Shown piece after piece: positions 58,501-61,500 of a stretch of DNA of 64,000 nt; positions within the stretch are counted from its first letter, which is position 1, and each line of letters opens with the position of its first letter. Origin of the DNA: a phage; sequence record PZ674596.1. One strand, given 5' to 3'. A program made the position numbers.

Positions 58501-61500
58501 ACAAGAAATACACCAAATCGCAGATCGTCGAGATGTATCGGGAGAAGCCACTGGCTGAAATCATTGCGGCTTTGCAGGCAATCGACGACCGAAGAGCAAA
58601 AGACAACCCCACCGAGTCAGTAGAAGAGTAAACACAAGGCGTCCACAGGACGCCTTTTTTATCTCTTGAAAATATATAAGTACTTACTTATTATTTTCGC
58701 ATAACAACCACATAGGAAAACACATGATCAAAATCTATCTATTGGCAGTAGCCACAGGCGTTTCAGTGGCTCTCATCTACGGTTTACTGGTTCCGTCGCT
58801 GATTTCTACCAAGAGTGATTTAGCCGTCATGTTTGGAGTTATCGTTGGTTTTGGTGCTCCTGTAATCGGTCTTATTGCTGGTCGTAAGTTTATCAACTCA
58901 TTAATCAAAGCAAAGGGGAAATAAGTAATGAAGAAAGGTTTACTTGCAGTTGCTCTGGCGGCTATTTGCACAATGGGTCTTACTGGCTGTGATCGCGTGG
59001 AGCCTGGATACGTTGGCATCAAAGTAAACAAATTAGGTGAAGACAAAGGGATCGGTGAAGTGGTTGGCGTTGGTCGCCAATGGACAGGTCTTAACACCGA
59101 ACTTTACGTATTCCCGACCTTCAAACAAATGAAGACCTACGACGAACCGTTCACATTCCAGATGAGTGACGGTACTGCTATTGGTCACAAAATTGGCGTT
59201 GCGTATCTGGTTAATCGTGACAAGGTAACGACGGTGTTCCAGACCTATCGCAAAGGCGTAGACGATATCACCGAATCAGATCTGCGTCAGAAAATTGCCG
59301 ACTCTCTAAACCGTTTGGCCAGCCGTATGACCACTGACTCATTTATCGACGGTGGTAAGGCGCAATTGCTGGACAACGCACTGAAAGATATTCAGAAAGA
59401 GATGTCTCCGGTTGGTATTGAGGTACTGAGCCTGTCATGGGTTGGAAAGCCTGATTACCCAAAAACCGTCATTGAATCTATCAACGCCAAAGTAACGGCT
59501 AACCAGCGTACTCTGCAACGTCAGCAGGAAGTTGAACAACGTAAAGCTGAGGCGAATATGCTACGTGAACAGGCTAATGGTGAAGCTGATGCTATCCGTG
59601 CTCGTGCGCAAGCAGAAGCAGACGCCATTCGTCTGCGCGGTGAAGCTCTGCGTCAAAACCCGAACGTTATGGAACTGGAAGCCATCAATAAATGGAATGG
59701 CCAGTTACCGCAGTACATGACTCAAGGGGCTAACACTCCTTTCATTACAGTGAAATAACTCCCCTAAAAAGTTCAGGCGTCCAGTTGGACGCCTTTTTTA
59801 TCGCAATTATCTTATTAAGAAAATAATTTGTTTAAAAGGATAAGAAAACATGACAGCTATTAAGAAACTCTACGATGCCGCAAACGTGGCTCTGGATGTT
59901 ATTGATGATGAAGCAGCAAAAGGCTTTCCTGAACCTGATTGGGCGCATCAGCTACGAAACGCTATCGCAGAAATGACCCCACCAGATCCAACCCCCGAGG
60001 AGACAGACTGGCAGCGATTCATCCGTATGTACGCTCAGGAAATAGGTCCAACGCCAACGGCAGAGCAGGCAATGCTGCTGAAATACTTCAAAGAGGCGGG
60101 AGAGGATTTACCAATTGATGACTCAGCATATTGGTTCCACTGCGCATGGCGTAAGTATGACGTGATATTCACACAAGGCATGGGAAGCAAAGATATGGTT
60201 GTGTGGCATCTACTCCATATAGACACAGCCGTTGACAGAGTTATTGAACAGTTTTTCCCTAAACAAGAAGATTGATCGCCTATTCATAACTAACAAAATA
60301 AGTAAACACTAACCACAAAAGGAAAAACACATGAGAGTTTTAGTTCGAATCGTTACCACCACTGTCTATGACGTGTTTCCGCTTTTTATGGTCAAAGTCG
60401 ATGGCCTTAACGATGAAGAAACTGACGCGCTGATCCAGCGTACTCTTGTTGAATATACAGGTCATGACGCTGATTCAGTGATGGTTGATGACGATGGTGT
60501 TTGTTGGCATAACGGCAACTGTTGGTACGTAGAAGAGACTCAACAAATCAGTAATGAAGATGCTGAACATCTTGAGCGTATTTTAAGCATCAGCACTTTT
60601 GAGTGAGTTTACAGTAAAGTTTATATAAGTTAGTATCTACCTATCATGAAGATTTTTATTGAATACTTGTTACTCATCGTTTCAATAGCTTTTGTCATCG
60701 ACTGCATTTTCACTGGTGTCATTCGTAAAGTCTTTTCCCCGGTGCACGACGTAGTCATAAACGCTTTGGCTATCGTGCTCGTATTTAATTCAGCATTTGA
60801 TGTAATCAAAGAGGTGGCAGCATGAAGACCATTCCATTCGCGCTGTTGTTTCTTTCTTCGATCGTTGTGGCCGACACCACTGTTTATCAGTGTGAAATGT
60901 CTGTAGCCGACGTTAAGAATGGCGCTCTTACCGACGTCATAAAAGCACCATATGGAGCGATGGTCGTAGACAGCGGCGACCAGTTCTATGTTGTGCGTGA
61001 CGATCGAGTGTTGTCATCCCCATATCTCACAAATCGTAATGGCAAATTAACCGGCGTCGGAGAAGACCACTTCGTATACAACAAATACAAGGGCTTCTAT
61101 GGCGTTCACGCTTCTCAGCAAAGCTACCTTTTCGATGACTGCAAGGAGGTTGGGTAATGGCATTAACACTGGCAGGTCTGGAAATCGAGAAAACAAGCGG
61201 CTACTGGCGTGCTAAGGGTTTCAAGCAGCCTGGCATTCTTGAGCGTCTGGAACGTGAAGATGGGTATATCGTCCACCAGCGGCGTGAATGGCGTATGTAC
61301 GATCCAGAAACAGGAAAACTGACTACAAAAGCCGGAACACTTTGGGGTCTGTTAAAGAAAATACACTAAATGCAAACTGACTGCGGCACGTTCCGCAGTC
61401 ATATTTCATAGTCGTCACCGCTGACAGCATACACAATCAACTACCGCTGATAGCATATCGAGAGTCTATCTCACCGCTCACAGCATACTTTACTCGATTT

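Follow-up and report, generated by a model that had tools for sequence, protein, structure and literature searches.

A terminator-bounded cassette of an SSU5-type phage-plasmid encodes a predicted periplasmic SPFH lipoprotein and a two-helix membrane partner

Within a 64,000-nucleotide stretch of sequence record PZ674596.1 (the window, to which all unlabeled coordinates refer), two adjacent genes of an SSU5-type phage-plasmid form a mobile, portable cassette that is bounded by terminators and carries its own promoter. The first gene (58724..58924) encodes a 66-residue membrane protein and the second (58928..59758) a 276-residue predicted lipoprotein with a full SPFH (Band_7) domain; these and the other parts of the cassette lie on the plus strand. 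SPFH proteins, among them HflK/C, prohibitins, stomatins, flotillins, and erlins, form membrane cages, and the contents of most bacterial cages are unclear. We propose, with a probability of roughly 0.55, that the cassette specifies an inner-membrane SPFH scaffold facing the periplasm, in which the hairpin-shaped small protein supplies the transmembrane element. A preliminary description of this DNA had recognized the membrane protein, the lipoprotein beginning 3 bp after it, an SPFH- or prohibitin-like core with a coiled-coil C terminus, terminators on both sides, and a phage-plasmid setting, all of which were borne out. The partnership of the two genes is now firmer than a single sequence could show, being conserved in distant phages and bacteria and sometimes taking the form of a fusion.

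The SPFH assignment is supported by profile, structure, and family searches. Pfam family PF01145 (Band_7) matched residues 23 to 209 (58994..59554) at an E value of 2.6e-30, with 106.2 bits against a gathering cutoff of 23.6 and coverage of profile positions 2 to 176 of 176; the preliminary description had named a Pfam search as its check and lack of an SPFH fold as the outcome that would speak against it, and the search was positive. The protein also matched PHROG 200 ("lipoprotein," E = 3e-108) and, weakly, the Flotillin family (PF15975) at residues 208 to 266, and RefSeq already names the gene "SPFH domain-containing protein." An AlphaFold2 model of the monomer, made with an alignment of 86 sequences (39 to 96% identity), had a mean predicted local distance difference test score of 82 (83 to 96 in the core) and consisted of a beta-rich region (residues 21 to 95), an alpha/beta region (97 to 176), one continuous Ala/Glu/Arg-rich helix of 65 residues (179 to 243; 59462..59656), a short helix (245 to 254), and a disordered end (260 to 276). 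Foldseek comparison with the PDB returned 65 matches at E values of ≤1e-3, all to SPFH or vault proteins, in alignments of 240 to 306 columns at 13 to 18% identity, and the top hits (257 to 306 columns) took in the long helix. These were led by HflK/HflC (7vhq, E = 3e-14), erlin1/2, and prohibitin, followed by stomatin, flotillin, and QmcA. By sequence, a profile search of PDB entries gave QmcA (1e-6), HflC (4e-5), and HflK (8e-5), and HflK was the sole match (0.007) when a single sequence was searched. Given such weak sequence matches to solved SPFH proteins and fold matches over the full length, the modeled protein is best placed in a separate SPFH subfamily with complete cage-type architecture. 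Homologs in the databases are labeled "serine protease," "SPFH serine protease," "transposase," or "putative transposase fusion protein," and since Band_7 is the only domain present, these labels look like propagated misannotation; "HflK family protein" is a further label in use.

The N terminus of the protein (MKKGLLAVALAAICTMGLTGC, followed by D) reads as a lipoprotein signal peptide (58928..58990) with a basic n-region, a hydrophobic core, and an L-T-G-C lipobox ending in Cys21, from which we predict a lipoprotein precursor attached to the membrane at its N terminus. Cys21 is kept in 97% of one family alignment (A2), and C-D-R-VEPG occurs in 93 of 120 close enterobacterial homologs. The residue after the cysteine is Asp22 (58991-58993), and in E. 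coli lipoproteins Asp at this position is the textbook signal for retention in the inner membrane (the "+2 rule"). The SPFH domain is thus predicted to be periplasmic and held at the inner membrane, like that of HflK/C. Some members of the family have no plain signal peptide and begin with an uncleaved hydrophobic anchor or with three hydrophobic segments, which indicates the same inner-membrane, periplasmic placement; this classification of N termini is crude and its counts are approximate. At the other end of the protein, the model suggests that the long helix corresponds to the coiled-coil wall of SPFH cages. It leads to a conserved tail, K-W-N-G-x-L-P ... P-F-I-x-V-K (residues 255 to 276; 59690..59755), in which W256, G258, P261, and P271 are invariant in the 86 sequences. 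Since these residues are invariant in a segment that is disordered in the monomer model, the tail is expected to fold only upon oligomerization and is probably an oligomerization or cap element.

The upstream gene starts with an ATG that lies 4 nucleotides after a Shine-Dalgarno-like AGGAAA (58714..58719, as read from the sequence), kept as (A/G)GGAAA or AGGA in SSU5-like variants. Its product matches PHROG 1130 ("membrane protein," E = 9e-26), which is filed under "moron, auxiliary metabolic gene and host takeover," and AlphaFold2 models it as two hydrophobic helices (residues 2 to 28 and 32 to 65), that is, a membrane hairpin with a basic C-terminal tail. Because five basic residues fall within the last 13 and the N terminus, which has one Lys, is short, the positive-inside rule would place both ends in the cytoplasm and the inter-helix turn in the periplasm. 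It is this turn (L-L-V-P24-S-L-I-S28-T-K-S-D), and not the helices, that is best conserved: across 23 aligned homologs (8 free small proteins and 15 fused N termini), Pro24 and Ser28 are invariant within the motif P-x-(L/M)-(I/L/V)-S. The small protein had no Pfam match at E values of ≤1, NfeD (PF01957) included, and a profile of the 23 homologs searched against PDB sequences recovered neither an NfeD or YbbJ chain nor any other relative. We therefore rejected kinship to NfeD or to a solved protein, the only matches being insignificant hydrophobic ones to NuoA/ND3.

The two genes are closely joined. The TAA stop codon of the small gene (58922-58924) and the ATG of the SPFH gene are separated by the 3 bp GTA, and the Shine-Dalgarno-like AAGGGGA of the SPFH gene (58913..58919, likewise a sequence reading) lies within the end of the small gene, suggesting translational coupling. 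Furthermore, both genes share one reading frame with a single stop codon between them (58922-58930); loss or read-through of that stop would yield a fused protein like those described below, in which the lipobox is internal, and raises the question of whether Lgt and LspA process such fusions. Between diverged SSU5-like variants, the ratio of nonsynonymous to synonymous substitution rates (dN/dS) is 0.12 to 0.24 for the small gene and 0.02 to 0.07 for the SPFH gene; the former value indicates that the small gene is a real coding gene, and both indicate purifying selection. Compared with phage-plasmid Cyrano, the window is 79% identical in nucleotides across the small gene and 99.3% across the SPFH gene, a contrast that marks a recombination breakpoint at the gene boundary. 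In a comparison of positions 58560-59900 with Cyrano (locus L002), the breakpoint is sharp, at ~58910-58930, with 66 to 86% identity to its left (recA end, promoter, and small gene) and 96 to 100% to its right (SPFH gene). The small gene comes in at least four allelic types, which are combined with SPFH genes that hardly differ. We considered positive selection on this fast-evolving gene and rejected it in view of its dN/dS and of the breakpoint.

The pair recurs far beyond this plasmid. A word-based search with the small protein reached close relatives only (28 matches), and distant partners were found by position and with a hidden Markov model (HMM) made from alignment A1. In every IMG/VR locus examined, the SPFH gene is directly preceded by an open reading frame (ORF) of 55 to 78 codons whose product has two hydrophobic helices. 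A scan of species genomes yielded SPFH loci from 80 different species, ranging over Enterobacterales, Sutterella, Rhodanobacteraceae, Pseudomonas, Cupriavidus, Leptospira, Bacteroidota, Dependentiae, and others; the small-protein HMM matched the adjoining upstream stretch in 69 (E ≤ 1e-3), and inspection by eye added two partners, for at least 71 of 80. In addition, 18 of the 150 best representatives of 50% clusters carry the small protein as an in-frame N-terminal extension of 54 to 97 residues ahead of the lipobox segment. The partner therefore looks obligatory and is almost always encoded immediately upstream.

Individual phages show the same arrangement in different settings. In N4, gp19 (41% identical to the small protein) stands beside gp20 (64% identical to the SPFH protein), and the genes overlap; in the P2/186-like phage P88 the pair is gp11/gp12, with a 4-bp overlap, in the early accessory region. 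Moo19 encodes it as gp30/gp31, with the same turn motif in the small partner, and Vibrio phage CKB-S1 has an upstream partner in which the motif is kept. In PVP-SE1 the partner, gp115, also has the motif and is encoded one gene away from the SPFH protein. phiP27 and Stx2a phages carry the pair as well, near int/xis; in phiP27 (NC_003356.1; locus L089, ~2800-3000), an unannotated ORF of ~62 codons (MRLYFTIVILLAIIACIYGLLVPFLISMKDTIAV...) lies directly upstream of L05 ("lipoprotein") and is the small partner, turn motif included, which annotation had missed. P1-like phages carry the pair in the variable region between the tRNA genes and ban, a position that plp-upl-tciABC occupies in P1 itself. 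Comparison of P1-like loci (L087 and L048, 3785-4828) with P1 (L088, 9473-10930) shows a variable cargo slot inside the C1-controlled ban operon. P1 plp and upl, suspected as orthologs because the module of P1-like phages is located between dmt/tRNAs and ban, were rejected: P1 Plp has 125 residues and is unrelated, the SPFH module replacing plp-upl-tciABC in P1-like variants, and P1 CRISPR interference essentiality data are hence irrelevant to the module.

The family as a whole is large. An exhaustive HMMER search returned 2816 cluster representatives at E values of ≤1e-3 (195 at ≤1e-30), and tblastn placed the SPFH protein in 413 phage records, many of them of strictly virulent phages: N4-like Schitoviridae, rV5/PVP-SE1-like and LUZ24-like phages, Erwinia Ounavirinae, phiCbK, Lak megaphages, and crAss-like phages. 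In Dyella and other Rhodanobacteraceae, the pair is chromosomal, with blaI/blaR1-like genes on one side and nrdAB on the other, a synteny common to seven of nine compared species and indicative of a vertically inherited, non-phage version. At the Dyella jiangningensis locus (L138, 2848-11981) and nine other Rhodanobacteraceae loci, the blaI/blaR1-like genes form a sensor-repressor pair assigned to PF03965 and PF05569; such a neighbor, an envelope-stress sensor of the BlaR1 type, might be a hint that the module acts in the cell envelope. Carriage by virulent phages, the Dyella copy, the lack of lysis-cassette adjacency, and silence in lysogeny broth (LB; see below) all argue against functions specific to lysogeny or to plasmids. 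We conclude that the module is a general envelope system picked up by phages rather than a lysogeny- or plasmid-specific device.

On the phage-plasmid, terminators mark both limits of the cassette. An intrinsic terminator with a 9-pair stem and a T-run (58636..58656) stands at the end of the recA-like gene upstream, and a second hairpin with a T-run follows the SPFH gene (59775..59794). The two are nearly identical, forming the left and right copies of a common repeat of ~30 bp (AGGCGTCC..GGACGCCTTTTTTATC), and the stem GGCGTCC-N3-6-GGACGCC occurs twice in the 64 kb, both times at a cassette end, versus 0 expected occurrences. To look for an empty site, we used as query a synthetic module-less junction that joined the left and right flanks through one terminator. 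This query aligned in one piece with E. coli D4 plasmid A (NZ_CP010144.1) over 1093 of 1093 bases at 99.5% identity. That plasmid lacks the cassette and has a single hybrid terminator copy, in which the left stem-loop is joined to the right flank, indicating a crossover within the shared GGACGCCTTTTTTATC. In 63 plasmid records the flanks are too near each other to accommodate the 1.14-kb module. Enterobacter SSU5-like plasmids have a DUF2591 gene at this site, between recA and the downstream hypothetical gene (for example, at 2186-2557 of Enterobacter hormaechei pFJMB0066_2, locus L094); its replacement of the cassette identifies the site as a position of cargo exchange. The pair thus shares with morons, the autonomous accessory units of temperate phages, a promoter and terminator of its own and presence/absence polymorphism between near-identical genomes.

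The promoter, TTGAAA-17 bp-TATTAT (58666..58694), is of the sigma-70 type and agrees with the consensus at 10 of 12 positions. A 33-bp block containing it is almost invariant in eight SSU5-like variants, whereas the sequence around it diverges and the adjoining small gene is only 62 to 79% identical in nucleotides. Its spacer holds a 10-bp perfect palindrome, TAAGTACTTA (58677-58686), which is a candidate operator; inspection of the promoter by eye for CpxR, PhoP, and sigma-E-type motifs found nothing convincing, leaving the palindrome as the one notable element. With up to one mismatch, TAAGTACTTA has seven plus-strand sites in the window (2766, 4682, 14759, 42110, 46914, 55157, and 58677) against 1.3 expected, often extended to ATAAGTAAGTACTTAcTTAT.AT, and may represent a phage-specific promoter or operator element. 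The closest twin of the cassette promoter, TTGAAAATAAGTCAGTACTTACTTAT (2755-2780), lies ahead of an ORF (2880..3767) and the major capsid gene. Copies of the motif precede the capsid operon, the SSB gene, and the SPFH cassette, while those at 4682 and 14759 are followed by hairpins and not directly by a gene.

Published transcriptome sequencing (RNA-seq) of strain LF82, which carries Cyrano, bears on how the cassette is used (S1 Table in PMC9928086; two replicates per condition, in units of log2[fpkm + 5], where fpkm is fragments per kilobase per million). The Cyrano SPFH protein is 100% identical to that in the window and the small protein 71%. For the small gene (CYRAN_56), values were 2.32/2.32 (the floor) in LB overnight, 4.98/4.89 and 3.48/3.09 after 1 and 6 h in Dulbecco's modified Eagle medium (DMEM), and 3.48/5.06 and 7.61/7.70 after 1 and 6 h in macrophages (PMC9928086). 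The SPFH gene (CYRAN_57) gave 4.30/3.02, 5.01/5.24, 5.00/4.76, 5.60/5.32, and 7.25/7.42 under the same five conditions, and the flanking recA gene (CYRAN_55) gave 3.56/3.12, 3.99/4.08, 4.20/4.19, 3.47/3.73, and 4.06/4.05; the exonuclease and polymerase genes were likewise flat (PMC9928086). Since the module is induced while flanking recA, exonuclease, and polymerase genes are not, it is a transcription unit of its own. From DMEM to macrophages at 6 h, the major capsid gene rose by 4.0 units and tail genes CYRAN_12 and CYRAN_13 by 4.3 and 4.4, and the integrase gene, CYRAN_46, CYRAN_60/61, and toxin-antitoxin genes rose in parallel with the module, which the authors did not include in their list of Cyrano morons (PMC9928086). 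The module thus appears to be off in the resting lysogen grown in LB and on together with the strongly expressed capsid and tail genes inside macrophages, which might reflect either a subpopulation undergoing partial lytic induction or a promoter that responds to stress. Homologs of CYRAN_60, CYRAN_61, and the "P1 Cra"-like CYRAN_62 lie downstream of the cassette (~60646-61369); all three are among the most macrophage-induced Cyrano genes, CYRAN_60/61 going from ~3.1-3.3 to 8.4-8.8 log2 units, and the HicAB and KacT toxin-antitoxin pairs and a LexA-like S24 peptidase gene are also induced (PMC9928086). This pattern suggests a partial, nonproductive derepression of the phage-plasmid in macrophages.

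Among characterized phages, the closest counterpart is the gp19/gp20 pair of N4 (PHROG 1130 and PHROG 200), which has the same order and whose two PHROG profiles are both matched here. BLASTP aligned gp20 with the SPFH protein at 64% identity over 274 residues (E = 2e-130), lipobox included, and gp19 has the same P-S-x-V-S turn as the small protein. N4 differs in being strictly virulent and in carrying the pair, as overlapping genes, in its early/middle region, and gp20 has Tyr rather than Asp after the lipid-modified Cys. Among solved structures, the E. coli HflK/HflC-FtsH cage (7VHP, 7VHQ, and 7WI3) is the best full-length match, and the likeness extends to the predicted periplasmic location of the SPFH domain and to a long helix and C-terminal tail that would form cage wall and cap. 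Unlike the HflK/C pair, the cassette has a single SPFH gene, with no second SPFH-like protein immediately beside it, and the protein is predicted to be held by lipid where HflK and HflC have an N-terminal transmembrane helix, and to work with a separate two-helix partner. Prohibitin (PHB1/2) and erlin1/2 also rank high as full-length fold matches (E ~ 1e-13); they lie on the non-cytosolic face and form closed cages tied to membrane protein degradation, but they are eukaryotic hetero-oligomers with N-terminal transmembrane anchors and no small hairpin partner, at 15 to 18% identity. SPFH-NfeD operons (QmcA-YbbJ, 8Z5G; YqiK-YqiJ; Pyrococcus PH1511-PH1510) similarly set an SPFH gene beside a small integral-membrane partner, and QmcA (8Z5G) is the best profile match among PDB sequences. 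However, the partner described here has no NfeD or OB-fold domain, for which 66 residues leave no room, and QmcA faces the cytoplasm, whereas the present SPFH protein is predicted to be periplasmic.

We infer that the SPFH protein is retained in the inner membrane, oligomerizes, contacts the small protein directly, and encloses a client. After lipidation of Cys21, Asp at +2 would retain the protein in the inner membrane with its SPFH domain in the periplasm, as in HflK/C. The long helix and C-terminal tail would then drive assembly of a closed ring or cage, as happens in all structurally solved SPFH proteins of the same architecture. The hairpin protein may dock under this cage or at its rim through the invariant periplasmic turn (Pro24...Ser28) and so supply the transmembrane element that a lipid-anchored SPFH protein lacks, a role comparable with that of the N-terminal helices in HflK/C or of YbbJ, the NfeD partner of QmcA. 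The cage would fence off an inner-membrane patch and, while the phage develops, govern what reaches a membrane client. Judging from HflK/C, prohibitin, and erlin, the foremost candidate would be FtsH or another membrane protease or quality-control machine. The genes appear to be transcribed along with the lytic (capsid/tail) program or under stress rather than in stable lysogeny.

Several points weigh against this scaffold model. Identity to HflK/C is only 16 to 18%, and the protein scored 30.2 bits against a cutoff of 134.4 with the HflC model TIGR01932 and 18.7 against 159.4 with the HflK model TIGR01933, these NCBIfam matches being partial and confined to residues 115 to 240. The +2 rule gives a prediction of inner-membrane retention, and the +2 residue differs elsewhere in the family (Tyr in N4 gp20, Ser or Thr in non-enterobacterial members). 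Some of the fusions may be stop-codon losses or sequencing errors, given that the genes in the window are in frame and one stop apart and that cluster representatives tend to be the longest members. No small partner was found upstream of the SPFH gene in LUZ24-like phage TL, phiEa104, or Kapaibacteria/Ignavibacteria, nor at an E. coli/Shigella chromosomal SPFH copy of 79% identity, so the SPFH protein can exist without it. Moreover, the expression data come from another strain with two replicates per condition, and a small induced subpopulation could explain the signal.

The preliminary description had suggested lysis timing, host proteases, or superinfection exclusion as possible targets of the module, all of them speculative. 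Two other explanations deserve the most attention. The module might be superinfection-exclusion or defense cargo whose periplasmic cage and hairpin keep the DNA of other phages from crossing the inner membrane or shield the membrane against attack, to the benefit of the lysogen or infected cell. Its presence at exchangeable accessory sites (the terminator-bounded indel of SSU5-like elements, the tRNA-ban region of P1-like phages, and the early accessory region of P88), the P22 gp17-like superinfection-exclusion gene that adjoins the pair in Moo19, the PHROG category of the small protein, and transcription from a plasmid prophage in macrophages while neighboring recA stays silent are all compatible with such a role. 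So is carriage by virulent phages, which also encode exclusion proteins, such as T4 Imm and Sp. Yet neither protein matched any defense-system family in PADLOC-DB 2.0 at E values of ≤1, on which basis we rejected identity with a known defense system; reads are all but absent from the lysogen grown in LB, a state in which an exclusion gene should be active; the syntenic Dyella pair sits on the chromosome between blaI/blaR1-like and nrdAB genes; and the carriers differ so widely in receptors and entry routes that the mechanism would need to be generic. We consider exclusion rather unlikely. The other explanation is mimicry of HflK/C, by which a phage cage might capture or occlude FtsH or compete with HflKC, altering the fate of CII/CIII/Xis-like regulators or host substrates and with it the lysis-lysogeny decision or host physiology. 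HflK and HflC are the best matches in sequence and structure among solved proteins and share the predicted periplasmic side. Furthermore, each of the three best fold matches (HflK/C, prohibitin, and erlin) works with a machine of membrane proteolysis or degradation. Several database records and one paper already assume a role of this kind. Nevertheless, because the equivalog cutoffs are far from reached and there is one SPFH subunit instead of a K/C pair, the protein is not a member of the HflK or HflC equivalogs. The low identity speaks against mimicry as well, as does the abundance of the family in strictly virulent phages, which make no lysogeny decision; we regard it, too, as unlikely.

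A role in lysis timing, in which the 66-residue hairpin would act like a holin or antiholin and the SPFH cage would corral it or the true holin to time permeabilization, is suggested by the size of the small protein and by its class II holin topology (two helices, both ends in the cytoplasm, and a charged C terminus, as predicted from the positive-inside rule alone). The capsid-operon-like promoter and an RNA-seq profile parallel to that of capsid and tail genes fit this idea. It is nonetheless improbable: the small protein matched no holin family in Pfam or PHROGs, and its most conserved part is the periplasmic turn and not the helices. No adjacency to a lysis cassette was found in the phages examined. 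The Cyrano holin, endolysin, and Rz/Rz1 genes are ~30 kb from the module, and its neighbors in N4, Moo19, P88, and PVP-SE1 are early or replication genes, with the pair itself among early/middle genes in N4 and Moo19. The syntenic chromosomal pair in Dyella is equally hard to reconcile with lysis. Least probable by far is a lysogenic-conversion virulence factor, a lipoprotein that might be released in vesicles and sensed by Toll-like receptor 2 (TLR2), as claimed for PM0222 of Pasteurella multocida. PM0222 ("HflK/C-like") is a prophage-encoded SPFH protein of a Gram-negative bacterium; its deletion reportedly attenuated virulence, and it was reported to signal through TLR1/2 (PMC9872710), and our module is induced in LF82 within macrophages. 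On the other hand, PM0222 is at most a putative relative of our protein, and its reported role in TLR1/2 activation and virulence concerns the animal host and not phage biology (PMC9872710). TLR2 activation is common to any triacylated lipoprotein and is thus a poor guide to function. Carriers of the family include soil Dyella and virulent phages whose hosts are environmental or plant-associated bacteria.

Our search of the literature on phage and prophage SPFH proteins, N4 gp19/gp20, and prohibitin or HflK in phages found no functional study; a 2026 paper states that the reason for an SPFH protein in phages "remains unclear," and another assumes an HflK/C-like lysogeny role. A more far-reaching version of the scaffold model, which we hold only tentatively and think doubtful, is that the pair constitutes a distinct, undescribed two-component SPFH class, vertically inherited in Rhodanobacteraceae, repeatedly captured by hundreds of temperate and virulent phages, N4 with gp19/gp20 among them, and switched on lytically to wall off part of the inner membrane. 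Such a device might neutralize FtsH-type quality control, protect the membrane from premature collapse, counter membrane-targeting abortive-infection effectors, or exclude competitors.

The surroundings of the cassette are those of a phage that is also a plasmid, as the preliminary description had it. The region is 94 to 100% identical to E. coli plasmids of ~110 kb and to the phage-plasmid Cyrano/pLF82. It matches 248 plasmid records, including Yersinia pMT1-type plasmids at lower identity, and "Escherichia phage" records related to Cyrano. By comparison with annotated relatives, the upstream neighbors encode DNA polymerase III alpha, a gp32-like SSB, an exonuclease, and RecA; downstream, small hypothetical genes precede a RepA/RepB plasmid initiator, and the rest of the window holds terminase, portal, capsid, and tail genes. 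The recA-like gene directly upstream of the cassette (57558-58631) encodes 357 residues. Its counterpart in Cyrano and many related plasmids has 779 residues and goes under the name "intein-containing recombinase RecA" or "LAGLIDADG family homing endonuclease" (1672-4011 of Cyrano locus L002; 3693-6032 of L083; 1-2032 of L093), so that the window has an intein-free allele of a gene in which a homing intein is usual.

In itself the locus is unremarkable: it belongs to a large family and was already annotated. To our knowledge, however, the combination of a predicted lipid-anchored periplasmic SPFH protein, a dedicated two-helix partner, and a terminator-bounded cassette has not been described before, and it amounts to a variant of the known theme of SPFH proteins with membrane partners. 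With 413 phage records, including those of the model phages N4 and PVP-SE1, the subfamily is among the commonest SPFH genes in phages. The present analysis replaces a vague annotation with a system of two proteins that lends itself to study, N4 and Cyrano both being amenable to genetics. Were its client to prove to be FtsH or a component of phage entry or defense, SPFH cage biology would be tied to phage-host conflict, and if the pair does represent a two-component class of its own, it would point to a general phage strategy of host-membrane compartmentalization.

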